From positions 576,001 through 640,000 of the forward strand of contig CAWFSF010000002.1 of NCBI GenBank assembly GCA_963818475.1: a stretch of 64,000 nucleotides of DNA. The letters run 5' to 3'. The notes beneath the pieces were generated by a model. It had not been told where the DNA came from, made no database searches, and was given only the letters and a program-made list of their open reading frames with translations. Both the position numbers and the translations under genes were made by a program. This DNA comes from Nitrospirota bacterium. GTDB taxonomy: Bacteria; Nitrospirota; UBA9217. Of the stretch, positions 3,001-50,098 are shown piece after piece; position 1 is the stretch's first letter, and each line of letters opens with the position of its first letter.

Positions 3001-3688
3001 TTTCAAGAATGCTGTCTTTGCCAAAGCCGGTTTTCCGGAATCCTCCGACGAATTCAGCGACCCGCTCCGCAGGATTGACCGTGGCAGAAAGCGCAATGCG
3101 CTGAAAATCGCCGGAAAGCGGCACCAGCCGGTCCACTGCGGTGATGAGATGGGTGCCGCGCTTGGTGCCTACGACCGCATGGATCTCGTCGAGAATGACC
3201 GTTTGAATGCCCAGGAGCATGCCGCGGCCGCTCCGGGAAGTGAGCAGCAGGTTCAGCGACTCCGGCGTCGTGATCAGGATCTCCGGCGGCCTGCGTACCA
3301 TTCGCCGCCGCTCCTCGCCCGGTGTGTCGCCGCTGCGGGTGAGAACGGTGATGTTCGGGAAAGGCGTGTTTGTGCGGTTGAAGGTCTCCCGCAATTCCGC
3401 GAGCGGCTTCAGCAAGTTTCGCTGAACGTCGTTGTTCAGGGCTTTAAGCGGCGAGATATAGAGGACGCGGATTGTGCCGCCGGACCAGGTCCCGTTGATG
3501 AGCTGGTTCAAGGCCCACAGGAAAGAGGCCAGCGTCTTGCCGCAGCCTGTTGGCGCGGTAACGAGCACGTGCCTGCCCCGGCTGATCTCGGGCCAGGCTT
3601 TCTCCTGAACGTCGGTCGGTTTGCCGACCAGCTCCCTGAACCACTTCTGGATGAGGGGATGAAATAGTGAGAGGCTCGATTCCGGCAT
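1..3688 (-). CDS. lhr: Lhr-family DEAD/DEAH-box helicase, runs off the window start; interrupted at ~2615-2785 by a REP-like insert carrying two in-frame stops
   Basis: ORF 2624-3688 has APTGCGKT, SPLKALNND, TTPESL, DEIH and SAT. The same frame continues after TAG/TAA as GNELAYAHHGSLSRELR...ATNSLELGIDIG...QRIGRSGH. Confidence 0.9.
2631..2783. repeat. Cluster of GC-rich palindromic REP-like units inside lhr
   Basis: CCCTCACCCCAGCCCTCTCCCA..GGGGAGAGGG, CCCCTCCCTTGATGGGAGGGG and CCCCTCCCCTCGTGGGAGGGG hairpins. Confidence 0.8.
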
Positions 3689-3738
3689 GTGCTTTCTTCC
3701 TCAATTAAAACATAGACCAGGAGGGGGAGAAAAGCAAG
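3682..3738 (-). promoter_or_regulatory. sigma70-type promoter of lhr (copy A of a duplicated promoter)
   Basis: Minus strand TTGCTT-N17-TATGTT just upstream of the ATG; homologous to 7469-7525. Confidence 0.6.
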
Positions 3739-3776
3739 AGAGGGGTAAGGTATTGTCCTGTTCTATCCGCTGAAGC

Positions 3777-3836
3777 GGTGAACGCTGAGCTAAGGGGCGG
3801 AAGTTTTGCCCGTCCCTCTTGAGTGAATTGTTAAGT
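3777..3836 (-). mobile_element. Integron attC site
   Basis: Minus strand ACTTAAC-AATTCACTCAAGAGGGACGG...CCGCCCCTTAGCTCAGC-GTTCACC; imperfect palindrome of VCR-like type, 60 bp, right after a stop codon. Confidence 0.85.
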
Positions 3837-3854
3837 TAGTTTTATTTGCTTGTC

Positions 3855-4277
3855 CTACTGTCTTTGTCTCGGTAAGATCATGTAAAATTTTCCGCCTTTT
3901 TCCCCGACAGGCATCGTTAGCGTACCAAATGTTTTACTACCTTCTAAGGTCACAACTAATTCATGGCTTACCTTTAGATTCGGGACATACGTAATCCCGT
4001 TCCTTGTCTTGATCAATCTATTTTTGGTTTTATTTGATCGTTTTAAAACGACTGATTTTACTTTTTGCGTTACCCAATACTCTCTGGATTTATTGTCTTG
4101 TTCCTTATCTTCATCTGTCACGCCCTCAAAACATGTCAAAGCTATTAATGCGGCAGGATCCTTTCTGGAAAAGGCATCTTTGATTGCATCAATAAAGCGT
4201 GTTTCTTCCTGGACTGAAGCTGCATTTGCCGAGGCTAATATTCCAAGCAGTATTGCAAGAATGACGAATGTACGCAT
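3855..4277 (-). CDS. Cassette-encoded exported hypothetical protein
   Basis: 140 aa, signal peptide, AT-rich, flanked by attC sites. Confidence 0.8.
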   Translation of the reverse strand: MRTFVILAILLGILASANAASVQEETRFIDAIKDAFSRKDPAALIALTCFEGVTDEDKEQDNKSREYWVTQKVKSVVLKRSNKTKNRLIKTRNGITYVPNLKVSHELVVTLEGSKTFGTLTMPVGEKGGKFYMILPRQRQ

Positions 4278-4304
4278 GGCAAGTTCCTTTGTAATTATAC
4301 TGTC

Positions 4305-4365
4305 AGTTAACCACGCGCCTGACGCGCCGACTTTTAGCGCGTCGCTGTCAAGGCGCTCGTTGGAA
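4305..4365 (-). mobile_element. Integron attC site
   Basis: TTCCAAC-GAGCGCCTTGACAGCGACGCGC...GCGCGTCAGGCGCGTG-GTTAACT, 61 bp. Confidence 0.85.
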
Positions 4366-4392
4366 TATTTTCGGGTTTTACTTCGTCGACAG

Positions 4393-4797
4393 CTAGTCAG
4401 GGCTCTTTCCCATTTCGTAAGGCGTCAATAACTCGACCTTAAGGGTCGCGCTATTATTCAGTACCCATGCCTCCGATTTTTTTAACAGTGTAAAAACTAA
4501 TTGATCAGAATCAGGATGAACTTTTACGATAATTGAGGTGTTATCAGGTGACGGAGACCCAGCTTGAAGTTGAAACTTCTTTGACAAAATATATCCGAGA
4601 TAGCCCTCTATCTTATCTTGAAGCCTTGCCAGCGATCCCTTGTCGCCCTGAAGCGGTGTTGCGATAACGATGGTCAGATCAGCACCTCCTCCCTTTTTTA
4701 TATTCATCACATCTATCACTGCCAGGGAAGGAATTGGATGATTCGGATCGTCACGCGGATCTATAGGAGGATTATGTTTAAATATTGGTGCTGCCAT
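4393..4797 (-). CDS. Cassette hypothetical protein, DUF6572-like (possible immunity-type protein)
   Basis: True start MAAPIF follows GGAGGT RBS overlapping the attC R' box; LQDKIEGYLGYI motif resembles DUF6572. Confidence 0.65.
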   Translation of the reverse strand: MAAPIFKHNPPIDPRDDPNHPIPSLAVIDVMNIKKGGGADLTIVIATPLQGDKGSLARLQDKIEGYLGYILSKKFQLQAGSPSPDNTSIIVKVHPDSDQLVFTLLKKSEAWVLNNSATLKVELLTPYEMGKSPD

Positions 4798-4806
4798 TAG
4801 TGACAC

Positions 4807-4862
4807 CTCCAACGACGAGTTCACACGCCGCGAAGCGGTCGGCAAGGAACGATTTGTTAAGC
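4807..4862 (-). mobile_element. Integron attC site
   Basis: GCTTAAC-AAATCGTTCCTTGCCGACCGCTTCGCGGCGTGTGAACTCGTC-GTTGGAG, 56 bp. Confidence 0.85.
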
Positions 4863-4867
4863 CAAAT

Positions 4868-5365
4868 TTATCGGCTGGTCCGCCGTTGTGAGTCGTAGCC
4901 GTTTTCGCTCGTCTGAAGCAGTACTGTCACACGTCTCCAGCTATCTTGGACCGTTTGGTGCGGCTTGATATCTCTCAAGTCATAGCAGACCGGGTCGAAC
5001 CTGGATATTATTGCGTCTGCCGGACGAACCAAGATTAGTGTTCTGTCATCGCGCCATATCATCTTATCGACAATGATGCTGCCTGTCATGACAGGCCATT
5101 CATAGTGTTTGTTCTTTTTATCAAGAGCGAGACCTGAAGGAACCACGTATAAACGCACTACGGATGATCCAAATGAAAAACCGGATTCTTGAATGGTCAG
5201 TACGGCATCATATTCCTTCCCTGGTGAAGCCAGTCGAAATTCTTCAGCCTCCTCTGGACTAGAACCAAAATCGAGTTCAAATTTCAAATAAACCCCAAGT
5301 GCGATGAGCGCGAGAAGGCCTATGGCAGCAAGAATATTCCGAAGTACAATAATAACTTTTTTCAT
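4868..5365 (-). CDS. Cassette hypothetical protein with N-terminal membrane anchor
   Basis: 165 aa ORF whose stop abuts an attC. Confidence 0.8.
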   Translation of the reverse strand: MKKVIIVLRNILAAIGLLALIALGVYLKFELDFGSSPEEAEEFRLASPGKEYDAVLTIQESGFSFGSSVVRLYVVPSGLALDKKNKHYEWPVMTGSIIVDKMIWRDDRTLILVRPADAIISRFDPVCYDLRDIKPHQTVQDSWRRVTVLLQTSENGYDSQRRTSR

Positions 5366-5395
5366 AATAATTCGCGGTGCCGCATATTAAAAGAG

Positions 5396-5418
5396 AATTA
5401 ACCAGTAGTTGTCTACTT
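5396..5418 (-). mobile_element. Putative attI-like site heading cassette array A
   Basis: AGTAGACAACTACTG-GTTAATT; non-palindromic GTT core, similar to the 11581-11600 site. Confidence 0.4.
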
Positions 5419-5500
5419 AGGGCTAAGTCACTAGCAACGGATTTCCGTTCTTTACGAGTTCAGCAAAAAGGATGCCGGATACGAGCTTCCAATTTGAAAT

Positions 5501-5529
5501 AAAGTAGCATGGTTTGCAGGGGTGGTCAA
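5501..5529 (-). promoter_or_regulatory. Putative Pc-like promoter pointing into array A
   Basis: TTGACC-N17-TACTTT with extended -10 TG. Confidence 0.5.
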
Positions 5530-5580
5530 TGAATTTAAGAAAAAACAAGGCGCAAGCGCTTGTGAGGGGCTGATGATGCG

Positions 5581-6237
5581 TCACGGGCGTGCTGCGTCGG
5601 GATCGAAGATCACCGTTTCCTGGCCGACTTCTACTTCGCCATACCTGAGATCGCCGGCTCGCTCGTATACGTGCAGAACAGCGCCGGTTTTGGTCAGTTG
5701 TGTGTCAACAAGCCGGAAGCTTCCCGGGATCGTGCCTTCGCCGAATAGGCGCTTGCCGGTACCGAGAACCACAGGGAACTGCCAAATGCGAAAGGTATCG
5801 ATAAGGTCGTGTTTGAGCAGGGTCTGGAGAAAATTACTGCTGCCGTGGACCTGGATCTCGCCGCCTTCCTCTTTTTTGAGTTTCGCGACCTCCTCGGCAA
5901 CGTCTCCCTTGAGCAGGAAGGAGTTGCTCCACGTGACCTCCTCGAGCGTCCGCGAAGCGACGAACTTCGGCCGGGTGTTAAGGGCGGCAGCGATCTCATC
6001 CGCCGGGTCGGTGGACTTGGGCCAGGAAGCTGCGAAAATCTCATAGGTCTTGCGGCCGAGCAGGAAGGCGCCGGCCTGCCTGGTCCACGCGGTCATGATT
6101 TCACCGAACTTATCATCAAAATAAGGAACGAGCCAGCCGCCGTGCCGGAAGCCGCCGTCGCGGTCCTCATTGGGGCCGCCGGGCGCTTGCATGACGCCGT
6201 CGAGAGTCAGGAAGGTTCCCGCAACCAGCTTTCTCAT
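5581..6237 (-). CDS. Dihydrofolate reductase / RibD C-terminal family protein
   Basis: TLDGVMQAPGGP, LLGRKTY, GSS..LQTLL, PVVLGTGKRLF motifs. Confidence 0.9.
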   Translation of the reverse strand: MRKLVAGTFLTLDGVMQAPGGPNEDRDGGFRHGGWLVPYFDDKFGEIMTAWTRQAGAFLLGRKTYEIFAASWPKSTDPADEIAAALNTRPKFVASRTLEEVTWSNSFLLKGDVAEEVAKLKKEEGGEIQVHGSSNFLQTLLKHDLIDTFRIWQFPVVLGTGKRLFGEGTIPGSFRLVDTQLTKTGAVLHVYERAGDLRYGEVEVGQETVIFDPDAARP

Positions 6238-6264
6238 GTTTGTCCTCTCAAAGATTTTACGGAC

Positions 6265-6295
6265 GCCGAACGCAGCTGATCAGCGGCGCCGCTCC
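6265..6295 (-). mobile_element. Right half of an attC site (remnant)
   Basis: GCGGCGCCGCTGATCAGCTGC-GTTCGGC immediately before the DHFR-family gene. Confidence 0.5.
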
Positions 6296-6297
6296 TA

Positions 6298-7360
6298 TCA
6301 CTTTTTATGGTGTTTCATTACGGTCTTGACGAACTGTCCGAATTTTTTGTCCTTTCTGCGTTTTTCAACGTAGGATAGCTCATTGTATTCAGATTCTTTC
6401 ATCAGCTTCAAATAGCTCTGGTATCGATCCGCGTGCAATGTGCCATTTTCAATTGCGATCAGGAGTGCGCAACCGGCTTCCTGAGTATGGGTGCAATTGG
6501 CAAACCGGCAGGTTTTCGAAAGGCTCCAGATGTCAGCGAAGCTTTCCTCAAGCCCTGAGCTGACGCCGATATTCCCCAGTTCCCTCATCCCCGGGGTGTC
6601 GATCAGCATCGCCCCTTGATCAAGGACGATCAGCTGGCGCTGCGCCGTCGTGTGTCTGCCCTTCCCGTCGCTTGCTCGGACAGTGTTTGTCTCAAATAGA
6701 TCGCGGCCGATGATATGGTTCAAGAGCGTTGTTTTGCCCACTCCGGAAGACCCGACCAGGCAATACGTTTTGCCCGGCTCCAGCAGTTGACGCACCTGAT
6801 CCACTCCGAAGCCGGTCACGTTGCTGAGCGGAAGCACTGTGCATTTGATGTTGGCTTGACGTACCTCTGATATTCTTTGCTCCAGCTTCTCGGGGCTGAC
6901 CAGATCGCTTTTTGTCAGGAGCAGTATCGGTTCGATCTGCCCTTCGTTGACCATGACGAGGTAGCGCTCCAGCCTGCGCAGATTGAAATCGAGATCGCAG
7001 GCTTGCACGATCAAGGCGGAATCTATGTTGACCGCGATCATCTGGTAGTCGATCTTCTTGCCAGGCGTTTTGCTCCGTCAAAAATGATTTGCGCGGGAGC
7101 AGGCCATGGATGATGGCAAACGTATCAGCGTTGTGGTACTGGACAAGTGCCCAATCACCGACTGAAGGAAGGTCTGTGCTCGACTCGGCGGAGTAGAGGA
7201 AACTGCCTGCCAATTCAGCGAGAACCTCGCTGTTCTCATTTCTTACGAGGTAGCTGTCCCTGTGGACCGCGGTCACGCGGGCCACCGTGCAGTCAGGCCT
7301 CTGCGCCTCCGATCTTTTGTCTTCAAACCACTGATCAAATCCGAGAAGTTTCAGTTCCAT
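6298..7360 (-). CDS. rsgA: Ribosome small subunit-dependent GTPase A (frameshift near 7075, probably a sequencing error)
   Basis: TKSD, GSSGVGKT, GRHTT, DTPGMRE and CRFANCTHTQEAGC Zn finger; N-terminal half in ORF 6692-7411. Confidence 0.9.
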
Positions 7361-7464
7361 AGCAGGTCTCGTGTCATCCATTCCCTTGCACGGGTCGGAT
7401 CTTCCAGCCAAGAGAAGATCTTCTCGGGCGTACTCTTAATTTCTATGGTAATTGCTGTTTTCAT
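7351..7464 (-). pseudogene. Truncated 5' fragment of an SRPBCC/polyketide-cyclase-like gene
   Basis: Own translation MKTAITIEIKSTPEKIFSWLEDPTRAREWMTRDLLWN*; the stop overlaps the first rsgA codons. Confidence 0.5.
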
Positions 7465-7468
7465 AATC

Positions 7469-7525
7469 CCGGCATAATTTTGTATTCTCAACTAAAACAT
7501 AGATCAAGAGGGGAGGAAATGCAAG
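7469..7525 (-). promoter_or_regulatory. Copy B of the lhr-type promoter
   Basis: TTGCAT-N17-TATGTT; 33/39 identical to 3700-3738, plus ATGCCGG at the same spacing. Confidence 0.6.
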
Positions 7526-7564
7526 CGGTGGCGTGGGGAAGGGGGGTTGGCTCTCACTGCCGGT

Positions 7565-8227
7565 TTACGTATTGGCCAGCTTCGCGATATCCCGGACCTC
7601 AAGGAGCTGCTTGTCGTACCCTTTATTGACGCTGTTGATCATGGCCAGTCCTATCTCTTTGAGCGTCAAAAGATACTGTGGAAATAATATTTTCCACAAA
7701 GGAAAAAACGGGGCAAGGATGCGATAAAACGAATGGGTGTTCTTCAAGCCTTTGGTCGGCTGGATAAATGCGGGACGAAACATATAGGCCTGGCGAAACG
7801 GCAATCGCAGCAGATCGTTCTCTGTTTTGCCTTTGACCCTGGCCCACATGATGCGGCCCGTTTCGCTGCTGTCGGTGCCCGCGCCGGACACGTAACAAAT
7901 GGTCATGTCAGGGTTCAGCTTTGCAAGCGTACGAGCCAAGGCCATGGTAAGGTCGTAGGTGAGGTGCCGGTACGTTTCCTCGTTCTTGCCGACGGAAGAC
8001 ACGCCCATGCAGAAATATCCTGCATTGCAGCCCGCCAATTCTTTTTCGATGGCGCTGAAATCACTAAAATCCTGATGCAGGATCTCTTTCAATTTGGGGT
8101 GCTGCACGTTGCAAGGCCGTCTGTTGATGACCAGAACGGATTCTACGTCGGGATGGAGGAGACACTCATGCAACACGCCTTCGCCGACCATGCCTGTGGA
8201 GCCGGTAATGATGGCTTTTATTTTCAT
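7565..8227 (-). CDS. NAD(P)-binding epimerase / TIP30-like SDR
   Basis: ITGSTGMVG Rossmann motif, VSGAG, KG..E. Confidence 0.85.
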   Translation of the reverse strand: MKIKAIITGSTGMVGEGVLHECLLHPDVESVLVINRRPCNVQHPKLKEILHQDFSDFSAIEKELAGCNAGYFCMGVSSVGKNEETYRHLTYDLTMALARTLAKLNPDMTICYVSGAGTDSSETGRIMWARVKGKTENDLLRLPFRQAYMFRPAFIQPTKGLKNTHSFYRILAPFFPLWKILFPQYLLTLKEIGLAMINSVNKGYDKQLLEVRDIAKLANT

Positions 8228-8276
8228 AGGAACGTCCTTTCACACTGAGTTTGCAGGTTGCGTTAAGTGTAGCACA

Positions 8277-8323
8277 ACCCAACGGCAAGACGCGCGCCTT
8301 ATGCGCGTCGGGACAAGTTAAAG
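8277..8323 (-). mobile_element. Short degenerate attC-like site
   Basis: CTTTAAC...GACGCGCATAAGGCGCGCGTC...GTTGGGT, 47 bp. Confidence 0.5.
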
Positions 8324-8366
8324 CATCTTTTCGATTTGCCCGGTGTCCCGGTTCTCCGTGAAAGGC

Positions 8367-8970
8367 TCAACCATTCGGTTCGACCTGCGACTGTAAAAGC
8401 ACATGGAGGGCAGTTCCGAATATCGGCATTAACTGTACCCTGGTTTCATCATCGCCCTGCACAAATCCGGGAATCACTGAATAGCACCTGCTGAAAAGCT
8501 CTTCCACTTCCCCTTTTGCAGTTTCGACAATTTGGCTTGGTATCTGCGTCGCTATCCGGGAAATTTCAAGAATTTCCTTTTTTGCAGCTTGATCATTGTC
8601 CTCCGTCAAGATCTTCTGATAAAGGTGCTGCTCGATCAACTTTTCAGTCAGCTCCTTTACGTCAACAGTAATGCCTTCCTTGCTCACCGCTTGGATTATC
8701 CCAAGCATTACGAACAGGCTGAAGCCGATTATAACGGGTGCATCTCTAGGCAGAACGCCGCTCGAAGAGATACTGCTTCGTCCCAGCAACAGAAGTGCTT
8801 TATCTGAGATGTCCTGCGCAGCCCGCGTTATTCCGAGTTGCAGCAGGTCCTGGTGAGCTTATTGGTGCACGTACAGCAGCCGGCGCTGCAAGAGGATCTA
8901 TCGATTTCACTGCACAAGAAATTAGTGCTCTGGCTAGAGGTTTTGCCTCTAGATCGAACTTGGAGTCCAA
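8367..8970 (-). pseudogene. Frameshifted cassette hypothetical gene
   Basis: AAGGAG + TTG start (MDSKFDLEAK...) in a different frame from downstream ORF 8367-8789. Confidence 0.45.
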
Positions 8971-9209
8971 GGTAATCTCCTTTTATTTTATATCGTTGGC
9001 GCAGAACGCGAACAACGAGTCTGTAGGAAAAGCCCCTCTCAAAGCCCCGAGTCACCAGGCTTCGTTTAACGCAATTAAACTTTCGCGATGTCGCTCAATG
9101 ATGGTCAAGCGAGGAGGGTCCGTCATTCGGGCTCAGAATCGTCACCATTACTATTCTTATTAGTATCAATGAAATATCGTCGCTGCCCTCAAGGGGTATA
9201 AATGCGGGT

Positions 9210-9314
9210 GCGCAATGCCAATAGCTGAGCTGCGGGCCACTGCCCTTGCAGCAGATAGAATGCTTTACGAGTAGCAAGACCGTGTGTTCCGTCAGCTCTT
9301 GCGTGTTGTTAAGC
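9210..9314 (-). mobile_element. Long attC site with degenerate R' box
   Basis: GCTTAAC-AACACGCAAGAGCTGACGG...CCGCAGCTCAGC...ATTGCGC, 105 bp. Confidence 0.65.
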
Positions 9315-9319
9315 GATGT

Positions 9320-9703
9320 CTATCTTGTAACCGGACTAATTTTAAAAATAACCATCAAAACGGTTATTATGATTCCAATAATTATTGAGACTATAAATAC
9401 AATTAGGGATGCAATTGACCATTTTCTTTGAACGTTATTAAAGTGTTCAACGCTTTGCCATTTCTTATTTTTCCAAGCCCATTCACGCCCTTTTATTCCT
9501 AAAACAATACATACAACAAACCCAATCACTGGCAGTCCGACGAGATAGGTTAATAATACTGATAAACCAATCCATGTGTTATTGAAAATTGCCCATATCC
9601 AATTCAAACAAAACCCGCCCCAACACCAGCCCTTAATTTCATCAGGAACAAGCGAATCCTTGCCCATACCTGATGTGTTATTGTGATTATTGCTTCCATT
9701 CAT
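9320..9703 (-). CDS. Cassette membrane protein (W-rich WxWGGFxLNWIW family)
   Basis: 127 aa, about 3 TM segments, GREWAW...F...QRKW motif. Confidence 0.8.
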   Translation of the reverse strand: MNGSNNHNNTSGMGKDSLVPDEIKGWCWGGFCLNWIWAIFNNTWIGLSVLLTYLVGLPVIGFVVCIVLGIKGREWAWKNKKWQSVEHFNNVQRKWSIASLIVFIVSIIIGIIITVLMVIFKISPVTR

Positions 9704-9737
9704 TATTGCTAATATCCTTTTAAATGCGCATCTTATC

Positions 9738-9787
9738 GCTTAACGACGAGTTGAGCCGCCTTCGGCGGCTCGAACGCCTGGTTATAA
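9738..9787 (-). mobile_element. Integron attC site (minimal, 50 bp)
   Basis: TTATAAC-CAGGCGTTCGAGCCGCCGAAGGCGGCTCAACTCGTC-GTTAAGC; GTTAAGCGAT is the exact complement of ATCGCTTAAC at the far end of the following cassette. Confidence 0.9.
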
Positions 9788-9788
9788 A

Positions 9789-10514
9789 TCATTTTGCTTC
9801 GGCAAGGACGATCATAATTTCGTTCTTATCTTCTTGACCAAAATCGACGATCCATGCCTTTTGCGGATTAGCTGGTTCTCTTGGATCTAGTTCTTCTGAC
9901 CATTCCAAGCCAATTGCGGCGTGATGCCAAATGATAGACCTGATGAATTGAAGCGATTTTCGGATTTCTTTGCGTGCTTTATCATACTTGGTACGTTCTG
10001 CGTTTACAAGTGTTTGAAAGTCCTTTCCAAGTGGATTCTTAGCGTGAAGATAACTGCTACTTTGCTTGTAAATTTCAATCAGCCGTCCGTGTGTAACTGA
10101 TAAGCTTTTATTGTCTACATGGTGTGCGATCTCCGTTTTTACAATCCGTTTGATAGGCCGAGGAAGAAAATAGGGACTGATTTCACTGAGTCGCTTTTGG
10201 ATTTCAGCAGCCTCCCAGTCCTTGGCGTAATCTCCGTGATCTCGATTATTCTCGGTCTTTTGTAGCTCCCGCAGCTTCTTATATCTTGCTTCATCTCGAA
10301 GTGCAGCAGTGAAGGTGATTATCTCGATGATTCTTCGAATTTGAAGAAAACAGAACTCCGCATCAAGAGATGCTAAGCCCGTTACAGGACTTGGCGCTCG
10401 CAGAACGAACTCGGCGCGCTGCAGTCGAAGTTTTAATTCAAGCATGAGCGTGCGATATACCTCATGCGGCGGAACAGTTGCGTTGTTGGAATCAGTTTTT
10501 GTCTTAATCCCCAT
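9789..10514 (-). CDS. Cassette hypothetical alpha-helical protein
   Basis: 241 aa ORF ending at an attC. Confidence 0.75.
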   Translation of the reverse strand: MGIKTKTDSNNATVPPHEVYRTLMLELKLRLQRAEFVLRAPSPVTGLASLDAEFCFLQIRRIIEIITFTAALRDEARYKKLRELQKTENNRDHGDYAKDWEAAEIQKRLSEISPYFLPRPIKRIVKTEIAHHVDNKSLSVTHGRLIEIYKQSSSYLHAKNPLGKDFQTLVNAERTKYDKARKEIRKSLQFIRSIIWHHAAIGLEWSEELDPREPANPQKAWIVDFGQEDKNEIMIVLAEAK

Positions 10515-10812
10515 AGAATTTTACATAAGTATGTACTTGGCCTTCTGCCTCCCTGACAAGCTGCAATAGCTTTTCCCCAAAAGCCTTTGCCTCTAGAATT
10601 TTCACGTGATTGATTGCATTTGTCAGTTCTCTGATCAATATTGGTATCTGTACCTGATTAAATACCGTATCTCCATATGGATCAATAAATTTTAGACAAT
10701 ATGATGAGCCGTCATTAGGATCGGGCAGTAATTCAGAAAGACGATTTTCTGAATCAAGGCATTGTTTTATTTGGTCGCCGCTTTCTGACTCTATATATGC
10801 ATCGATTCCCAT
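10504..10812 (-). CDS. Cassette hypothetical protein (IDPYGDTVFN motif)
   Basis: 102 aa, first ORF of a two-ORF cassette. Confidence 0.75.
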   Translation of the reverse strand: MGIDAYIESESGDQIKQCLDSENRLSELLPDPNDGSSYCLKFIDPYGDTVFNQVQIPILIRELTNAINHVKILEAKAFGEKLLQLVREAEGQVHTYVKFYGD

Positions 10813-10821
10813 TATTCACCC

Positions 10822-10878
10822 ATATAACGCGCGCGGAGCCGCGAGCTTGTCGCGGCGGACTCGATGAGCAGGTTGGAA
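10822..10878 (-). mobile_element. Integron attC site
   Basis: TTCCAAC-CTGCTCATCGAGTCCGCCGCGACAAGCTCGCGGCTCCGCGCGC-GTTATAT, 57 bp. Confidence 0.8.
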
Positions 10879-11023
10879 TCAGCAAATCAATAATTGCACG
10901 CCAGCTATCAACGTCACCTTGGCCAGCAGTCCCGCCGCTTTACCAATGTCATCGCCCCAGCGTTTGAAGTAGCTGTCATGGAGAATACCTTATCAGTCAT
11001 AGCAATTGTTTGCTCCAAAGCTG

Positions 11024-11086
11024 GACCAACGCTACGGTCGCCCGTGCGGACCGGAGGGTTGCGTCTGGTGCAGAGATTTATTCGAC
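11024..11086 (-). mobile_element. Degenerate attC site
   Basis: GTCGAAT-AAATCTCTGCACCAGACGC...GCGACCGTAGC-GTTGGTC; R'' is mutated relative to the expected GTCTAAC. Confidence 0.55.
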
Positions 11087-11111
11087 GTACTTTCTTCAGT
11101 CTGCTCAGGCG

Positions 11112-11580: not shown

Positions 11581-11605
11581 GTCTAACCAGTTGTTAATTG
11601 GACGG
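11581..11605 (-). mobile_element. Putative attI-like site heading cassette array B
   Basis: CCGTCCAATTAACAACTG-GTTAGAC: canonical GTTRRRY without an upstream attC palindrome. Confidence 0.5.
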
Positions 11606-11627
11606 AAACCACTATCTACACATATAT

Positions 11628-11673
11628 AAAAGCATATACAGGTATATGGTTCCATCTACCTGTATATGCTTTT
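11628..11673. repeat. 46-bp near-perfect palindrome
   Basis: AAAAGCATATACAGGTA...TACCTGTATATGCTTTT. Confidence 0.85.
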
Positions 11674-11891
11674 CCAGCGGTGTGTCCGAGATTTTCATTT
11701 TTTATGAACCAGAGCGGTTTCCCAGGATTAACCTTCCTCGTGCTGTTTCAGGTTGGAATCCCACTGTTACCGCGAGAGCTGATGGTACGGGAACCTATAA
11801 CATTGTTGCTAAAATCGCATTACGCTAATGCCTGGAACCAACGCAACGGGTGCAATAATGTCCCTGAGTCACCTGGCCCTTTCGTTCCCTT

Positions 11892-12830
11892 CTATTCTTT
11901 CACTTTCCAGGCTGATCGCATGGAAGCCTGATCGAACGGAGCAGGAATCTTCCCGTCAGCAGCAAAGAGATAAAGCGCGCATATATAGATATGGTTTGCG
12001 ACATTGAATAGATAAGAAAACGAGAGAATACCGATCAGACAAAGCACGGCAGCGATTATAATGATTGAAGTACTATTCAGAAGGATAGAAATAATGAACA
12101 TACCAGCGAAAAAAAAGAGCGACGAAAGAATAATTATAAGGCCGCCGAATTGGATGCCTACATACCCGATCAACGATTCTCCCCATGTTTTCTTCAGAGT
12201 ACCTGCGGATTGCCGTAAGAGATGAAATGGATTGACGCTTGCTTCAGTAATAATAAACGGAATGACAAATACCGAAGCAACGCTCCATGCAATTCCTATA
12301 AAACCCAGAATGATCTTGCCTAAGATCCCGACTTTTTCTTCCAGTGTCCGAATTATATAACCGATCAGGCCTGCAAACAGTGACCAGATTAAAATGGAAG
12401 GAAGTTTTGTGCTTGCAAATCGCAAGCCCCGCATGATGGAAACATCTTGTCCGTTCAATGCACGCAAAATTTCATGATAAAACGCCACGGAAAAAAAGGT
12501 GGCGAGGAACATGGCGGCAAAATAGAGTATCGAAATGAAGAGAATACCATTGTTTGTCAGCTCTGCCGGCAGCGGACTATTGTGGTTCTGAGATGCTTCC
12601 ATTGATCCTGCAGTAAAAATCGTTTGCCCAACGGCTTTCCAATGCTGGATGTCGGTATACTTGAATCCGGTCGGCTGTAAAGCCACAGGTGCAATAAAGA
12701 AAAGAATGATGAGCAGCGTTAATGCGGCGGTAACGATGGGAAATACGAGCAGCTTCTTATGGTCCCTCATGACCGTCAGAGATTGTGTGAACAACTGCCA
12801 ACTATTCTGCAGCCTTGTCGTAAAGCTCAT
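11892..12830 (-). CDS. DUF6159-like polytopic membrane protein
   Basis: SW.LF..S..V....K.LL.FP N-terminus; S..TLKKTWGE motif. Confidence 0.75.
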   Translation of the reverse strand: MSFTTRLQNSWQLFTQSLTVMRDHKKLLVFPIVTAALTLLIILFFIAPVALQPTGFKYTDIQHWKAVGQTIFTAGSMEASQNHNSPLPAELTNNGILFISILYFAAMFLATFFSVAFYHEILRALNGQDVSIMRGLRFASTKLPSILIWSLFAGLIGYIIRTLEEKVGILGKIILGFIGIAWSVASVFVIPFIITEASVNPFHLLRQSAGTLKKTWGESLIGYVGIQFGGLIIILSSLFFFAGMFIISILLNSTSIIIIAAVLCLIGILSFSYLFNVANHIYICALYLFAADGKIPAPFDQASMRSAWKVKE

Positions 12831-12871
12831 ACTTCCTCCTTTTTTGAGCGCAAGGGTTGCCGCGTTCTCAC

Positions 12872-12975
12872 CCCGGACTTGGTATGACTATATACAAGTT
12901 GATCAAATAGATAAAGAACAAAAGAAGGGTAATTTAAGGTAATGATTCTGTGAGGGAGTCGCGGGGTACTACTCT
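12872..12975. repeat. 104-bp dispersed upstream repeat, copy 1
   Basis: 96/104 identical to 15601-15704 by manual alignment. Confidence 0.9.
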
Positions 12976-12992
12976 AGCATGCGTTTAGCCGA

Positions 12993-13337
12993 TTACACCC
13001 GTTTCCCGCCAAAACAGTGTATGGTGCGCGTTCCCGCGACAGCTCTGCCGGAATGCGGCGTGCCTTTCGGGATATAACATTCCCGGCCCGCCTCATAAGG
13101 CTCTTCCTTCCCGTTGCTAATGACCGTATATGTTCCCTGAAGGACCACGAGATACTCGTCATAATCATGGGTGTGCTCTTTTGAATCCCTGTCCTGGTAA
13201 CACGTCCAGAACGCCATCTGGCTGCCGTCCGCGCCGGTAAAAACGTACCCTTCTATCCCTTCGGTGTATTGTGATTCCTTGCCGATACGGTTTGCAGGAC
13301 GTCTCATAAACTCAGGAAACTCTTTCATGTCGTTCAT
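12993..13337 (-). CDS. Cupin domain protein
   Basis: HTHDYDEY..V..G and IPKGTPH. Confidence 0.85.
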   Translation of the reverse strand: MNDMKEFPEFMRRPANRIGKESQYTEGIEGYVFTGADGSQMAFWTCYQDRDSKEHTHDYDEYLVVLQGTYTVISNGKEEPYEAGRECYIPKGTPHSGRAVAGTRTIHCFGGKRV

Positions 13338-13393
13338 CGCTCTATATCTCCTGAGTTTTTTTCACTTTCGCGGTCTTCTCTTTGAATGTATGG

Positions 13394-13873
13394 CTAGTTA
13401 AAAATTTCATACTCCGGAAGGTTCCGGACGTCAGGGCAATTTCTTGAATGGCGTTCGATCTCGCGTCCCTGCTTGCCGCGAGGCCCGGCTTCGTGGATGC
13501 TCAGGTTATAAATGCGATCAGCGTAATTTACGTTTGCGATGTATCGATCGCCGGGCCGGGGAGTAAGGATAGTAGTACTGGGGACGAATCCGTCTGAATG
13601 GAAAACGAAAGCGAGATACGTGGGGCGGCCTGTGGGAATGCCTATCTGCGTCTCACCGTTTTTCAGTTTGATGCTGCCGAGGTAGTCGCTTTTGCAATCA
13701 TCCTTCAAATCATAAATATGAAGGACTACTTCCACGCTCATAAACAGAGATCCCGACGCTTTGGTCTTCACCAACAGATTTTTTTCTGCCGTATTCGGAT
13801 ACGTCTTGAGGCCGGAGCAGGCTGTAACAGCAAATATCACCACTAACCAGAACGCCAGATGAAAACGGCTCAT
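13394..13873 (-). CDS. Hypothetical lipoprotein
   Basis: Lipobox VTAC. Confidence 0.75.
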   Translation of the reverse strand: MSRFHLAFWLVVIFAVTACSGLKTYPNTAEKNLLVKTKASGSLFMSVEVVLHIYDLKDDCKSDYLGSIKLKNGETQIGIPTGRPTYLAFVFHSDGFVPSTTILTPRPGDRYIANVNYADRIYNLSIHEAGPRGKQGREIERHSRNCPDVRNLPEYEIFN

Positions 13874-13906
13874 GATCGGCTCCTCCCGGGACAGCCTTTT
13901 CGTATA

Positions 13907-14419
13907 TTATCGGGTTGTCAGATCCGGACAGCCCATGTTATCGCCCTTGACCCATCCCCGCATCGCATTATGGATAAACTTCTCATCGGGAGACGACCTG
14001 AAAATATCGATTTTTGTCCGGTTCTTGCCGATAGGAGTAGCATCCATGACAATCACATAATCGCCTTCCGGAGGCGCGCCTATCGCGATGACCCCACCCG
14101 CCTTATACTGAAGATGAATTTCAGTCCGATTGGGAGTGGTTACATAGGTCGGTTTAAAAACATTGAATCTTTCGTTTTTACCAATGCAATTGAGGCATAC
14201 GAGGCGGACCGTAACATCAAGACATTCTGTTGCCTTTTTTCGCATCGTCTCCGTGACGTCTTTGAACGAACGTGCGACTTCGAAAGTTTCCACTGTCGTA
14301 AACGGAGTAGCGCGGACAGTTTTCCGGAATTCTTCCGCATTTTTTGCGCCGCACCCTGCAAGGAGAAATACAACTGCTGCCAGCAACAATCCCGTTCTTG
14401 CTCGAAACAGGTAGCGCAT
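13907..14419 (-). CDS. Hypothetical lipoprotein
   Basis: Lipobox LAGC; start at MRYLFR after GGAGG. Confidence 0.75.
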   Translation of the reverse strand: MRYLFRARTGLLLAAVVFLLAGCGAKNAEEFRKTVRATPFTTVETFEVARSFKDVTETMRKKATECLDVTVRLVCLNCIGKNERFNVFKPTYVTTPNRTEIHLQYKAGGVIAIGAPPEGDYVIVMDATPIGKNRTKIDIFRSSPDEKFIHNAMRGWVKGDNMGCPDLTTR

Positions 14420-14460
14420 CCAAGCCTCCTTGAATTCATAAAGTATCTGCTTGCGGATCA

Positions 14461-14928
14461 TCACTTTATTACGCTTTTACTGTTACGGTGCGTTGAGGTC
14501 GAAGACTGCATCGAAGTCCCTGCAAACCCGAGGATCTCGTCAATTTGCGACCTCAGGTAAGGTTTAAGTCCGCCTCCAAAGAACCCTGGTCCGGCACTCA
14601 CTGTTATCGGTATAAACAATAAGGGCAGCTGATTGGACTGGAGATAATAATCGCCCTCAAGCAGATTTTCGGAGTAGTGCAGATTTGCATGAAACGCAGT
14701 ATAGCCCAAACTTAAGATGGAATGGGTCGGCCACCAATCAGAGATCTCTAACGTGGTGTCGTTGATCCATGACACCGAGTATTCTTTGGATGCCTTCTCC
14801 GCAATGTTTTTAAGCGGGTTTAGATCCACTTGTGAACGGATATTTGTTACGGCGCACCCGCTGAAAAGAACTATTGAAACCAGGCAGAGAACGAGATTTG
14901 AGCGAACTTTCATGATCCTCCCTTTCAT
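14461..14928 (-). CDS. Hypothetical lipoprotein
   Basis: Lipobox FSGC. Confidence 0.75.
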   Translation of the reverse strand: MKGRIMKVRSNLVLCLVSIVLFSGCAVTNIRSQVDLNPLKNIAEKASKEYSVSWINDTTLEISDWWPTHSILSLGYTAFHANLHYSENLLEGDYYLQSNQLPLLFIPITVSAGPGFFGGGLKPYLRSQIDEILGFAGTSMQSSTSTHRNSKSVIK

Positions 14929-14971
14929 AGTTGTTTTAATCTGGCGAGCCTTTCACGCCGCTCTATTCCAC

Positions 14972-15580
14972 CTACGAAACTGTTTCATTCTTTTTCATGT
15001 CTGCATTGTAATCCATGATCCTGGGCGCGCTGCCTATTTCACGAAGAAGATTCTGGTTCTCCTCTACAGAACCAGGCAACAATAAAGTGCCCCCGCGGAG
15101 ATATTTACGAAGATCGGCCCTTTGCTTCAATAAATTTCCAAGTCCTTCGCGCGAAGATGTTGAGATATGAATGCCATCTTTTGTAATATTTGCAAGGACG
15201 ACAAAATGCAATGGTTGCGAAGTTAAACTTTTCATGATCTGGCTCATCGTAGGCGGCCCTCCCGGATCTCGGGCAAGGCTTGAATCGGCCTCCGGAAAGA
15301 AATCAAGATAAGTGAAGCCGCCAGACTTAAAGAGCGTCAACGTGTAATTAGACCAGGCATTACCTTGTCTGAGTGTTGCAGTGTAGCATTTTGGATCATC
15401 ATCATTTTTCTTTATCGTCCAATTGTGCCCGGCACGTTTATCCGCATAGGTGCCGAGCAGGCGATCGTCCTTTATAACTTGCTCCGGCTTGTAAAAAGGA
15501 TTGGTCGAGGTTAGACATCCGCTGAGAATAGCAGTAAGCAATAAAAATAGAATTTGTCGTAAATTTATTGAACTTCGCAT
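14972..15580 (-). CDS. Hypothetical lipoprotein
   Basis: Lipobox LSGC; start at MRSSINL. Confidence 0.75.
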   Translation of the reverse strand: MRSSINLRQILFLLLTAILSGCLTSTNPFYKPEQVIKDDRLLGTYADKRAGHNWTIKKNDDDPKCYTATLRQGNAWSNYTLTLFKSGGFTYLDFFPEADSSLARDPGGPPTMSQIMKSLTSQPLHFVVLANITKDGIHISTSSREGLGNLLKQRADLRKYLRGGTLLLPGSVEENQNLLREIGSAPRIMDYNADMKKNETVS

Positions 15581-15600
15581 TTCTCCCCCCCTTTTTTTCA

Positions 15601-15704
15601 CCCGGATTTGGCATGACTATATACAAGTTGATCAAATAGATAAAGAATAAAAGAAGGGTGATTTAAGGTAATGATCCTGTGAGGAAGTCACGGGGTTCTA
15701 CTCT
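15601..15704. repeat. 104-bp dispersed upstream repeat, copy 2
   Basis: CCCGGA..ATGACTATATACAAGTTGATCAAATAGATAAAGAA..CTACTCT. Confidence 0.9.
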
Positions 15705-15735
15705 TCTTTTGCGCGTGGGAATAACACGCCGTATT

Positions 15736-16167
15736 TCAGGAAGTGAGAATTTTGTATTCCGCCGCGATCTCCGCGTTGCCTTTCACCATTGCCCAGACCG
15801 GGCAGACGGATTCCTCTGCCTGCCGAAGCGCCAGCCGAACATCGTCGTCCTTCGCGTCGCTCGACACAACGGTGAATTCAAGGAAGATCTTCTCGAACGA
15901 CGTCGGGTGCTGCTGGCGCCTCGTCCCTTTTGCCTTCACCGTGATCCCGGACACCGTTCTCCCCATCTTTCGGAGCAGGATTCCGATCGTTCCGCCGCTG
16001 CACGCGGCGAGGCTCATCAGCAGCATTTCAAGGGGAGTGTACCCCTGCCCGTCGCCGAACGGGGGAATGTAGTCGATCGGGATCGGTGGATGGTCCCTCA
16101 ACCCGCCGGTATAGCCCAGCTTTTGGTTCGTAGAGTGAACCGTAACTTCCAATGGCGCGATCATCAT
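15736..16167 (-). CDS. OsmC family protein
   Basis: TPLEMLLMSLAACS and CPV motifs. Confidence 0.9.
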   Translation of the reverse strand: MMIAPLEVTVHSTNQKLGYTGGLRDHPPIPIDYIPPFGDGQGYTPLEMLLMSLAACSGGTIGILLRKMGRTVSGITVKAKGTRRQQHPTSFEKIFLEFTVVSSDAKDDDVRLALRQAEESVCPVWAMVKGNAEIAAEYKILTS

Positions 16168-16217
16168 AGTCCTCCTTTGATCATTCCGGGTAACTGCTCA
16201 GCACATATAAAATTCTT

Positions 16218-16362
16218 TCTCCCGCAGAGCCGCGTAGCCGCAGAGAAATCATTATCAAGAGCTTCGTCAAGATTCAATAGGCAACTGCGCGCCGCCGTCA
16301 CCCAAGCAGCTGTTCTTGTCGCGTTTTTTGCCTTCCTCTGCGCCTCCGCGTCTCCGCGCGAG
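16218..16362. repeat. REP-like palindromic element (CGCAGAG..CTCTGCG family)
   Basis: CCGCAGAGCCGCG...CTCTGCGCCTCCGCGTCTCCGCGCGA; related remnants near 38270-38341 and 56640. Confidence 0.55.
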
Positions 16363-16390
16363 TCCCCCTTACAATTCTGGAGCTTCTCCG

Positions 16391-16918
16391 TCATTTCCGT
16401 CCGGCCAAATGCCGCTGAATTTCGTCTTTATGCAGCCCCACGTATGCGCAGCTCGGCGTTGTTCCGCATTTTCTGCATTCGATATCGTAGGCTGAATTTA
16501 TCGTCCCGCAGCGTTGACAGGAATAATGCTCGAGCATTTCCCTATACCAGGTTTCATATCCTGCTTCCTTGATCCGTGCCTGCGACTTCCACAATTCTAT
16601 CCTATGCGGCATCTCGGCCTGGAAGGCCTTCAACTCCCTGCAGGGATATTCCGCGCATTCGCCGCAAAACTCAACGCCCCTGGCCGCGGCGCATTTCGCC
16701 ATCGTGCACCTGGTTTCACAATAAAAGCAGCGCTTGTCGGAACGACATCCGTTGCACTGCATTTCCTCCAGGGGCCGTTTCAAGCGCTCGGCCATTTTCG
16801 CGAGCCCTTCCGGTTCTTCCCGGGTGCCGATAAAAGCGCGACATGCCGGGCAAAACAGGCCGCAGACCGCCGCAAGGCGCTTGTCCGGCGTGCGAATGCT
16901 GTTATCCGCTTTGTCCAT
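16391..16918 (-). CDS. DUF3795-family Cys-rich protein
   Basis: CGLFCPAC, CNGC, CGECAEYPC. Confidence 0.85.
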   Translation of the reverse strand: MDKADNSIRTPDKRLAAVCGLFCPACRAFIGTREEPEGLAKMAERLKRPLEEMQCNGCRSDKRCFYCETRCTMAKCAAARGVEFCGECAEYPCRELKAFQAEMPHRIELWKSQARIKEAGYETWYREMLEHYSCQRCGTINSAYDIECRKCGTTPSCAYVGLHKDEIQRHLAGRK

Positions 16919-16924
16919 GATAGT

Positions 16925-17302
16925 TCACCATCCTTTCGTCAACTGTCCCGATGGACCGCCTCTGGCGAAAATGCCGGCAGACAGACCGCGATATATTCGG
17001 CGCCGTCGGGTCCCGGAGTGCTGTACTGGACCCATTCGTTGCGCTCGCGTAATGATGGCCTGGCCTTCTTTGACATCGATGCTTCCGGTCCGCGTGGTCA
17101 CGCGAAGAAGACCGCGCAGGACCACGGTATATTCATCGAACTCGGGCGTCTGTCCCGGTTCGACCCAGCCGGAGGGACTCTTCATCCGGGCAATGCTTAT
17201 TGCGTCGGTTTTTGAATTGACGCGGCCGACAAATTCCTCGATCCTCTTCGGCATATTGCCCGCAGCGGTGATCACGGTCGGCGTTTCAATGAGTTTGGGC
17301 AT
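16925..17302 (-). CDS. Cupin protein (probable C-terminal frameshift)
   Basis: GWVEPGQTPEFDEYTVVLRG; expected WVQYSTP tail lies in another frame. Confidence 0.8.
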   Translation of the reverse strand: MPKLIETPTVITAAGNMPKRIEEFVGRVNSKTDAISIARMKSPSGWVEPGQTPEFDEYTVVLRGLLRVTTRTGSIDVKEGQAIITRAQRMGPVQHSGTRRRRIYRGLSAGIFARGGPSGQLTKGW

Positions 17303-17347
17303 ATCGCATCCCTTTCCGCAAATGAGAGCATAGGGCGTTCTTTTGAC

Positions 17348-17413
17348 CCCGGATCTATTATGACTATATACAAATTGACCAAGATTGATAAAGAGTAAAA
17401 GAAGGGTATTTTA
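17348..17413. repeat. Diverged, partial copy 3 of the upstream repeat
   Basis: CCCGGA..ATGACTATATACAAATTGACCAAGATTGATAAAGAGTAAAAGAAGGGTA. Confidence 0.8.
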
Positions 17414-17551
17414 TTAATGGTACTCAAAGTCATCTCATCCTTAAGCATGCCCTCTTAATCCCGATCAGGGCAAACGAGATATAATTAAAGCAGAACTTTT
17501 TTGACCGAGATCGACCCGATCAGACCTATCGGGTGCAGGGAGGTGATATCC

Positions 17552-31962: not shown

Positions 31963-32021
31963 AGTTGCTAAGATGGTCATTCGTAAAGCCTCATAAATTA
32001 AATAACCCGTCATTCCGGGCT
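31963..32021. repeat. 59-bp direct repeat, left copy (followed by a GTCATTCTCGCGAAAGCGGGAATCCAG REP)
   Basis: 52/59 identical to 33870-33928. Confidence 0.8.
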
Positions 32022-33869: not shown

Positions 33870-33928
33870 AGTTACCAAGATGATCATTAGTAAAGCCTCA
33901 CAAAGTAAATAACCCGTCATGCCGGGCT
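33870..33928. repeat. 59-bp direct repeat, right copy
   Basis: AAGATGATCATTAGTAAAGCCTCA..AAATAACCCGTCAT. Confidence 0.8.
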
Positions 33929-48074: not shown

Positions 48075-48299
48075 AGCTGGACAATATAGTAAGTGGAAGC
48101 ACGCAATTTGTCAATTCGAGAAATAGGAAAGAAAAGGCACAAGACGCTTTCTACAGGGAAAGAGACGCCGACCCTGGTCCGGGATCACTCGTCTAGGACG
48201 GGAAGGATGCCGAGGCTGCTCAGGAAGGAGAATCGGGCAATCTTGAAAATATAGTTTCTTATATTTCATGATCCGTCAACCGTAACCTGATAAATCGAA

Positions 48300-48980: not shown

Positions 48981-49169
48981 ATCCTAAAAATGGCATTTGG
49001 ACACGGAAGAATCGGAAACATCTGATTACCAGAAGTAGGCGCTTCTAAGCGACGCGGATAAATTCTGAAGCAAAGCATTCACCTATTAGGTGAACCTCTT
49101 ATAAAAGAAATAATCCGCCGTTATCCGGCTCTTATCCGTGTTTATCCGTGTCCAAATGTTTTTTAGGTT
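48981..49169. repeat. MITE/REP-like inverted-repeat element, copy 1
   Basis: Terminal CATTTGGACACGGA/TCCGTGTCCAAATG and internal TCACCTATTAGGTGA. Confidence 0.75.
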
Positions 49170-49336
49170 TATGCGCTGACAGCCTTCTCTTTTGATGAAA
49201 CGATAGCAAAAGGGTAAAGAGCAGTCAATGAGCCCAAAGGATGAATAATCAGGATGGTCTTTTTATAAGATAACGTTGTTGCTGGGAGGACCGGCCATCT
49301 GCTTGCCGGGAGATACACGTCGATCCTGCTCCGGGA

Positions 49337-50098
49337 TCACTCGTCAATGGCGGGAAGGATGCCGAAGGCAACCTCGTCGTTGATGAACCTGCGGATGATC
49401 TCTTTGGCGCCGGGAGTGGTCCTGACGAACTGCACCCCGACGCCCCACATGCCGGAAGCTTCGTCGTCCGGAGACTGGCAGTAGACGACCCGGGCTTCGG
49501 CGCGGACCGCCTCTTCCTGAAAGCTGACCTGCAGCACGACCTCGGAACCCTCGGGATAGGGCCGGAGCGTGCGCAGGTACATGCCGTTCGCCGAGAGGTT
49601 GGTGGCGCATTCGCCGTCCACACAGTCGAGGGGCCGGTCGTTCACGAGCACGGACAGCCGGGTGGGGATGCGGACGTCCCTGCGGCGCGATCCGGGCTCC
49701 AGCACGGGCTGAAGGACCTCATAGAGCTCATTGGCCTGGACGGGCTTGCTGATGCAGGACAGGGCTCCTGCCCGGCGACATTGCTGTTCGACCTCGGGCG
49801 CCAGGTCATGGGTCATGACGATGATGGGCACGGCAGCGGTCTGGTCGAGCTGCCTGATATGCTGCAGCAGGTCCAGGCCGCTCAGCCCCTTGAGGTGCAG
49901 TTCGGTCACGATCAGAGAGGGGGGCGAGGCTGACGCGATCTCGAGGGCGTTTCCGACGCCGAGGGCGGAGCAGGCATGGTATCCGAGGCGCTGGAGGATC
50001 ATGGACATGAGCACAAGGTTCCGGGCATCGCAGTCAACAACAAGGACGAACCTGTTCATGCGCTCCATGCTTCCAGGTGTGCTCCGGGCTTCCTCCAT
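49337..50098 (-). CDS. Atypical receiver + PilZ domain protein
   Basis: REC fold with an apparently non-canonical phosphoacceptor (IVTELHL); RRDVR and NLSANG PilZ motifs. Confidence 0.85.
   Translation of the reverse strand: MEEARSTPGSMERMNRFVLVVDCDARNLVLMSMILQRLGYHACSALGVGNALEIASASPPSLIVTELHLKGLSGLDLLQHIRQLDQTAAVPIIVMTHDLAPEVEQQCRRAGALSCISKPVQANELYEVLQPVLEPGSRRRDVRIPTRLSVLVNDRPLDCVDGECATNLSANGMYLRTLRPYPEGSEVVLQVSFQEEAVRAEARVVYCQSPDDEASGMWGVGVQFVRTTPGAKEIIRRFINDEVAFGILPAIDE

Follow-up and report, generated by a model that had tools for sequence, protein, structure and literature searches.

Is a short repeat that stands ahead of several unrelated genes a device for capturing them, or is it a promoter that has been used more than once? 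This question is raised by a 64,000-nt stretch of a Nitrospirota bacterium (contig CAWFSF010000002.1 of assembly GCA_963818475.1, positions 576,001 to 640,000), which is called the window here. It holds three copies (c1, c2 and c3) of an AT-rich repeat of ~100-130 nt, close to an array of attC-like cassettes. An earlier note on this DNA had read the copies as the boundaries of gene modules in a second, undescribed cassette or gene-capture system, and the repeat itself as a portable promoter or recombination anchor. We consider it on balance probable that the repeat is a reused promoter with its leader, a 'putative mobile promoter' (PMP) at the head of three transcription units within a low-GC accessory island. 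That it acts as a promoter, that an activator binds it and how it was copied are what we infer from the sequence.

The repeat search of the window found the pair 12872-12975 and 15601-15704, which is identical at 96 of 104 positions (92%) with a spacing of 2729 nt. A third, partial copy (17341-17413) follows at a spacing of 1747 nt and matches in two blocks, 81% over 42 nt and 87% over 30 nt, with a 1-nt indel. A 19-mer common to the copies occurs three times at no more than 3 mismatches, compared to 0.01 occurrences expected, and none of 100 shuffles reached three. Furthermore, an nhmmer profile of four copies, namely these three and a homologue from a related Nitrospirota metagenome-assembled genome (MAG; L012 below), placed them at 12844-12974, 15588-15703 and 17322-17420. 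The same profile detected no further copy below E=7 in the whole 64-kb window, and a wider regulon motif of the repeat gave no additional sites there. The repeat search, the 19-mer shuffles and the profile thus bear out the three co-oriented copies and the 96/104 pair described before; the 104 nt then given for the element hold for that pair, and the true extent is larger by the profile.

All three copies are on the minus strand, as are the genes after them. The 104-mer is separated from the downstream start codon by 41 nt in c1, 20 nt in c2 and 45 nt in c3, in line with the 20-50 bp that the earlier note had stated for unrelated minus-strand genes. Relative to the start codon, it occupies -145 to -42 in c1 and -124 to -21 in c2, and it begins 18 nt (c1) and 32 nt (c2) past the upstream stop codons. 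Each copy is followed by its own Shine-Dalgarno sequence and start codon.

We found that the genes behind the copies are unrelated to each other. The minus-strand order is c3, the cupin-like gene, DUF3795, a 76-codon open reading frame (ORF), OsmC, c2, four lipoprotein genes (lp1 to lp4), Cupin_2, c1 and DUF6159. All-vs-all BLASTP of 11 island proteins gave a single weak cupin-cupin match, and the downstream genes are therefore non-paralogous. A lipobox is present in all four lipoproteins, which are not paralogues. The gene identities read from the letters alone hold, with Pfam behind the DUF6159-like protein and the lipobox behind lp1, and so do the block contents (four lipoproteins with a cupin; cupin, DUF3795 and OsmC). 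Only 'orphan' was too strong for lp1, which has 8 relatives at 37-74% identity among 5.8 billion proteins and is rare. The GC content at third codon positions (GC3) is 0.44-0.60 in blocks 1 and 2 and 0.55-0.76 in block 3, compared to 0.71-0.85 in six neighbouring housekeeping-type genes. This profile indicates that ~4-16 kb is a low-GC accessory island.

To describe the anatomy of the repeat, we aligned c1, c2, c3 and the L012 copy, among which few sites vary. The columns invariant in all four form the blocks ACCCTTCTTTT, TCTTTATC and TTGTATATAGTCAT, plus TCCGG. These three blocks occupy UP-like, -35 and -10 positions, and they fit a sigma-70-type promoter. The sole indel of the core, in c3, falls within the spacer between the -35 and -10 elements. 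Upstream of the -35-like hexamer comes a T-rich tract, and further upstream a tandem direct repeat of 10-11 nt (Table 1), a candidate activator binding site; in L012, both of its units read exactly ATTACCCTT and the period is 11 nt. In a sigma-70 consensus scan the c3 version passed, at 9/12. We propose promoter function because of this position and conservation.

Conservation was assessed by an exact scan of the invariant 19-mer against 185,579 species genomes, a collection to which the window's own genome evidently does not belong. The scan returned 13 loci, where ~17 chance matches were estimated (18 specified bases, 596 Gb, both strands). In 12 of the 13 loci the match covers 19-26 nt, which is the 19-mer with at most a few bases beside it. 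The sole true homologue is L012, on a 363-kb contig of a Nitrospirota MAG with one exact core match. It is 90% identical to c1 over 83 nt, 89% to c2 over 80 nt and 86% to c3 over 65 nt. The FtsH that is probably on the L012 contig is 88% identical in amino acids to that of the window, which indicates that the two organisms are related but distinct; the closest named relatives of FtsH are from Nitrospirota (83-84% identity). Since the repeat core is as alike across these species as c1 and c2 are within the window, functional constraint is suggested, and the core is probably under such constraint.

The surroundings of the L012 copy were then compared with the window. In L012, the repeat lies 9 nt from a conserved non-coding region (region X) and points into it, and the DUF6159 gene is absent at that position. 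The two genomes match in region X at 82% (67 nt) and 77% (87 nt). The window has ~1065 nt extra between repeat and X, made up of the ribosome-binding site, DUF6159 and a 112-nt tail, unless L012 has lost them. The homology of X ends at ..ACTGGTTAGA in the window and at ..ACTTGTTGGA in L012; unrelated first genes start exactly there, with an attC-like hairpin after each. Thus, repeat and X head attC-like arrays in both genomes. The neighbours on the other side differ: L012 has an HD-domain gene there, the window has block 2. This HD-domain gene (2531-3320 of L012, plus) is found in two frames, 2531-2851 and 2709-3320, which suggests a frameshift or an assembly error.

The edges of homology bear on how the copies arose. 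A 5' extension from GAGTAG is common to c1 and c2 and missing in c3. A 3' extension (..GAACGC..TTGCGCTC) is common to c1, c3 and L012 and was removed from c2 by a 22-nt deletion, past which the c1-c2 homology picks up again across the ribosome-binding site. The limits of homology therefore vary among c1, c2, c3 and L012, which points to non-site-specific copying and is unexpected from a recombinase with a fixed crossover. An apparent c1-c2 homology continues ~16-27 nt into both coding regions, up to a common TTTACGACAA; 11 of 5000 shuffles of the downstream segments reach its score, and this match may be due to chance or be very old. In the DUF6159 family, MSFTTRL is the native N-terminus. A chimeric lp1 start, with c2 copied from the DUF6159 upstream region, was considered and not relied on, because a similar N-terminus (MPNSINFRR compared to MRSSINLRQ) occurs in the closest lp1 relative, at 74% identity.

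In the commentary PMC3575422 on the PMPs of Matus-Garcia, Nijveen and van Passel (2012), these are sequences with at least 80% identity over at least 50 nt upstream of non-paralogous genes of one genome, placed in a -150 to -50 window before the translation start and outside neighbouring coding sequence. The families described there are mostly pairs with 92% mean identity, some span taxa, and their mobilisation mechanism is given as unknown. Like them, c1 and c2 are highly similar upstream of non-paralogous genes, and they lie within these limits of similarity, position and non-paralogy; c3 alone is borderline (81-87% in blocks of 42 and 30 nt). Unlike the PMPs of that text, the copies here are three, tandem and co-oriented within 4.6 kb, they bracket foreign-looking operons at the head of an attC-like array, and the homology of c1 and c2 reaches the ribosome-binding site.

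In the proposed mechanism, the core would combine the T-rich upstream tract and the 10-11-nt tandem direct repeat with a weak -35 (TTTATC) that a spacer of 17-18 nt separates from a good -10 (TATAGT). Transcripts of the three co-oriented units (cupin-like/DUF3795/OsmC, the four lipoproteins with the cupin, and DUF6159) would begin ~30-55 nt ahead of the respective start codons. The copies would have come from segmental duplication or recombination of one ancestral upstream region, and dedicated cassette machinery would be unnecessary for the copying. The repeat would then sit at the promoter-proximal end of an integrase-less attC-like array, and in L012 it would aim straight into the conserved head of that array. 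A similar event is reported for the Cit+ E. coli of Blount et al., in which a resident promoter region was reportedly copied before another gene by non-site-specific recombination. Unlike the reported tandem duplication of one segment in Cit+, the intervening blocks here are mutually unrelated.

Table 1. Positions in the window of the repeat copies, their candidate promoters, the genes they precede, and other features.
Feature	Position	Strand	Remarks
Repeat copy c1	12844-12975	minus	upstream of DUF6159 gene; nhmmer 12974-12844, E=7.6e-42; 90% over 83 nt vs L012
Repeat copy c2	15588-15704	minus	upstream of lipoprotein gene lp1; lacks 22 nt of the 3' part of c1
Repeat copy c3	17322-17420	minus	most diverged; lacks the 5' extension of c1 and c2; upstream of cupin-like gene
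Candidate sigma-70-type promoter, c1	12887-12915	minus	TTTATC 12910-12915, 17-nt spacer, TATAGT 12887-12892; read from sequence
Equivalent candidate promoter, c2	15616-15644	minus	read from sequence
Equivalent candidate promoter, c3	17363-17392	minus	18-nt spacer; read from sequence
Tandem direct repeat ATTACCTTAA / ATTACCCTTC	12924-12943	minus	upstream of the -35-like hexamer
DUF6159 membrane-protein gene	11892-12830	minus	between c1 and region X; Pfam PF19656, E=1e-23; 846 relatives at E<=1e-5, the closest two 79% and 77% identical
Block 2	12993-15580	minus	four lipoprotein genes and Cupin_2 gene; GC3 0.44-0.60
lp1	14972-15580	minus	block 2 lipoprotein
lp2	14461-14928	minus	block 2 lipoprotein
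lp3	13907-14464	minus	block 2 lipoprotein
lp4	13394-13873	minus	block 2 lipoprotein
Cupin_2 gene	12993-13337	minus	block 2
Block 3	15736-17302	minus	cupin-like, DUF3795, 76-codon ORF, OsmC; GC3 0.55-0.76
Cupin-like gene	16925-17302	minus	block 3; apparent frameshift
DUF3795	16391-16918	minus	block 3
OsmC	15736-16167	minus	block 3
Region X	11582-11779	minus	conserved, non-coding; 22-bp hairpin 11628-11673, z=-5.4
attC-like cassette array (plausible)	3700-11111	minus	no integrase in window; crude AAC..GTT scan, fold z-scores
Duplicated pair	31963-32021 / 33870-33928		52/59 identical; upstream of flavin reductase and Big_2 protein genes
Duplicated pair	49054-49171 / 56517-56633		97/118 identical; before cytochrome c-like gene and DUF1456 gene
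Duplicated pair	3700-3738 / 7487-7525		33/39 identical; promoter-like 39 nt

Several observations weigh against this reading. The c1 and c2 versions are under the threshold of the consensus scan, and the -35 is weak (3/6). Promoter-like sites are not in excess in the region (6 found compared to 7.9 expected from shuffles), and the near-invariant stretch of ~85 nt is more than a simple promoter requires. The foreign composition of the blocks between tandem co-oriented copies (GC3 0.44-0.60 compared to 0.71-0.85) fits a recombination anchor as well. The earlier note had suggested looking in relatives for module differences at the repeat, and the gene content of the window and L012 does differ exactly at its 3' edge, an outcome in favour of that note. 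The comparison itself covers 4 kb of one relative, L012.

The best of the alternatives is the recombination anchor, in which the repeat would be portable homology or the site of an unknown recombinase; we regard it as unlikely. A circular DNA carrying one copy and its genes would integrate beside a resident copy, and blocks equipped with their own promoter would stack in tandem at the head of the cassette array and might loop out. The order repeat-block-repeat-block-repeat, tandem and co-oriented, is the expected product of such single-crossover integration, and the foreign composition of blocks 1 and 2 agrees with it. So do the L012 repeat, joined directly to X without the DUF6159 gene, and the finding that repeat and X head the arrays of both genomes with upstream-side neighbours that differ within 2 kb. 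However, the 64 kb contain no recombinase, the repeat has no inverted-repeat core and no fold signal, and the homology edges differ in every copy. The c1 and c2 copies differ at 8 of 104 positions and by the 22-nt indel, and duplicated upstream regions elsewhere in the window carry no stacked blocks. The difference seen in L012, the one comparison genome, is explained equally well by a simple deletion. The anchor idea is thus weakened, not refuted. A stronger form, in which the repeat would be a dedicated anchor at the heads of integrase-less arrays in this Nitrospirota lineage, stacking operons by single crossover upstream of promoterless cassettes as a second, coarser capture tier coupled to an integron-like array, appears to us unlikely and ranks below the general idea.

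The absence of structure and of a recombinase bears on this and on the gene-capture claim. Folded as single-stranded DNA, c1 and c2 gave no signal on either strand (z=-0.10 to +0.37 relative to shuffles), compared to z=-1.6 to -3.1 for three neighbouring attC-like sites and the strong hairpin of region X (Table 1). An attC site is an imperfect palindrome with paired core sites (..AAC / GTT..). Our attC scan, a crude AAC..GTT hairpin search of intergenic stretches with an uncalibrated score, gave 1.0 at the c1 intergenic stretch and nothing in six other stretches of 13330-17500. An earlier attC scanner found nothing at strict settings and at loose settings matched throughout the window and L012, coding DNA included. 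Integrase, transposase or recombinase domains were found in none of the 23+9+24+38 ORFs of the window, and an integrase remnant was found neither in 38 alternative-frame ORFs of at least 110 codons (1-30 kb) nor in 8 ORFs of L012. Rfam returned no match in the window at the gathering score, none on the repeat at E<=1 and none in L012; its two matches at E<=1 are at chance level and both on the X hairpin.

These fold scores and domain scans agree with the earlier statement that there is no attC structure and no recombinase nearby. The claim of a second cassette or gene-capture system has no specific support: no recombinase was found, there is no structured or palindromic site, the edges vary, the blocks hold several genes without attC, and the copies are three plus one. 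The portable promoter proposed along with it fits, given the promoter-like spacing, the three unrelated units and the PMP-like similarity of c1 and c2. Two coding readings of the repeat were also rejected. On the minus strand, one frame can be read through c1 and L012, yet c1 provides no start codon for it, c2 interrupts it with a stop and c3 has a frameshift; a plus-strand mini-ORF of 8-12 codons is without a ribosome-binding site.

The gene-capture claim loses further support from three more duplicated upstream-region pairs in the window (Table 1), reported as far from the array. They indicate that such duplication occurs generally in this genome and does not depend on the cassette array. 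The 3700-3738 copy is just upstream of the start of an Lhr-type helicase gene, and its partner is inside the cassette region before an RsgA-like gene. The pair at 49054-49171 and 56517-56633 carries 3-4 direct repeats of the TTATCCG type with a period of ~11 nt and looks like a response-regulator site array. Another similar stretch (48156-48216 and 49308-49369, 52/62 identical) has one copy upstream of a Crp-like regulator gene and a second one that overlaps a response-regulator/PilZ gene at its 3' end.

A remnant integron platform is improbable in our view. The repeat would be the analogue of Pc, X or the 3' end of the repeat would be attI-like, the integrase would be lost, and the extra copies would be rearranged leftovers. 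As in an integron platform, a promoter-like element is aimed into an attC-like array (in L012 from 9 nt), and the gene content varies just downstream. The homology between the genomes likewise breaks at a GTT-containing site at the end of X (..GTTAGA / ..GTTGGA), before different first cassettes that each have an attC-like hairpin after them. Unlike in an integron, neither genome showed an integrase gene or recognisable remnant beside the repeat, which itself has no attC-type palindrome, and multi-gene blocks without attC sites each have their own promoter copy. Moreover, X does not follow c2 or c3, and its terminator-like hairpin would stop transcription before the cassettes.

Region X itself deserves description. 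Its hairpin is flanked by A and T runs and looks like a bidirectional terminator. The palindrome is near-perfect over 22 bp, with the motif TACCTGTA/TACAGGTA in two arms in the window and three in L012 (1690-1790), and it was not found outside X. Possible roles are those of a terminator, an operator or a binding site for a recombinase.

Even less probable is a transposable element of the miniature inverted-repeat kind (MITE), of the Correia type, with an outward promoter. The repeat is short, AT-rich, intergenic and promoter-like, and near the ends of c1 there is an imperfect inverted repeat of 10-11 nt (ACCCCGGACT ... AGTCGCGGGGT) that is paired in the minimum-energy fold. However, shuffled sequences pair just as well (z=-0.1), and the inverted repeat is degraded in c2 and missing in c3. 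Target-site duplications were not found in the flanks of the copies, which share one orientation, lie within 4.6 kb and have no further member in the rest of the 64 kb, and the c1-c2 homology continues into the ribosome-binding site. Among the species genomes scanned, the related MAG has a single exact core match and the others have none, and plasmid and phage collections gave no match to the repeat (blastn, E<=0.01). Correia elements, ERIC and REPIN (PMC3575422) are similarly short intergenic repeats able to supply promoters, but they carry terminal inverted repeats or hairpins and are dispersed in tens to hundreds of copies, neither of which applies to this repeat as far as testable.

It is very improbable that the three copies are a regulon signature only, alike because selection for a single regulator kept them so, without any copying among them: the direct repeat upstream of the -35 does resemble response-regulator sites and the core is conserved across species, but 96/104 identity, which includes the DNA between plausible binding sites, and homology into the ribosome-binding site indicate common descent and not convergence, and the 64 kb hold no additional motif sites.

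Other features of the island and the window are as follows. Past DUF6159, a 320-nt non-coding stretch is followed by short genes with attC-like imperfect palindromes between them, down to ~3.7 kb. An attC-like array on the minus strand at ~3.7-11.1 kb is plausible, and its clearest sites are 4305-4365, 8277-8323, 9738-9787 and 11024-11064. The RsgA GTPase gene in this region (6298-7411, minus) appears split, since ORFs 6298-7041 and 6692-7411 overlap and the upstream N-terminal-like segment is in a different frame. The Lhr-type helicase (2-3688, minus) consists of two ORFs, one with DEAD (2624-3688) and one with Helicase_C, WH_Lhr and DEAD_assoc (2-2563), with a break near 2563-2624. The cupin-like gene behind c3 had no Pfam, NCBIfam or PDB sequence match, with only a weak pairwise match to the other cupin. 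It has an apparent frameshift near codon 86, beyond which another frame supplies a plausible C-terminus that stops just short of DUF3795; this may reflect a pseudogene or an assembly error. An ORF of 1501 codons (57174-61679, minus) without a Pfam match consists mostly of diverged 309-nt tandem repeats in two clusters.

If the ordinary reading of the repeat as a reused promoter is true, the locus would clearly illustrate how an uncultured Nitrospirota lineage reuses a promoter, with one upstream region, conserved across species and placed at the promoter-proximal end of an integrase-less array, serving three unrelated accessory operons. Such reuse would help to explain how foreign low-GC genes are expressed, and it would supply a candidate promoter for the array. 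If the anchor reading is true instead, the repeat would offer a route for stacking whole operons beside integron arrays without an integron integrase.

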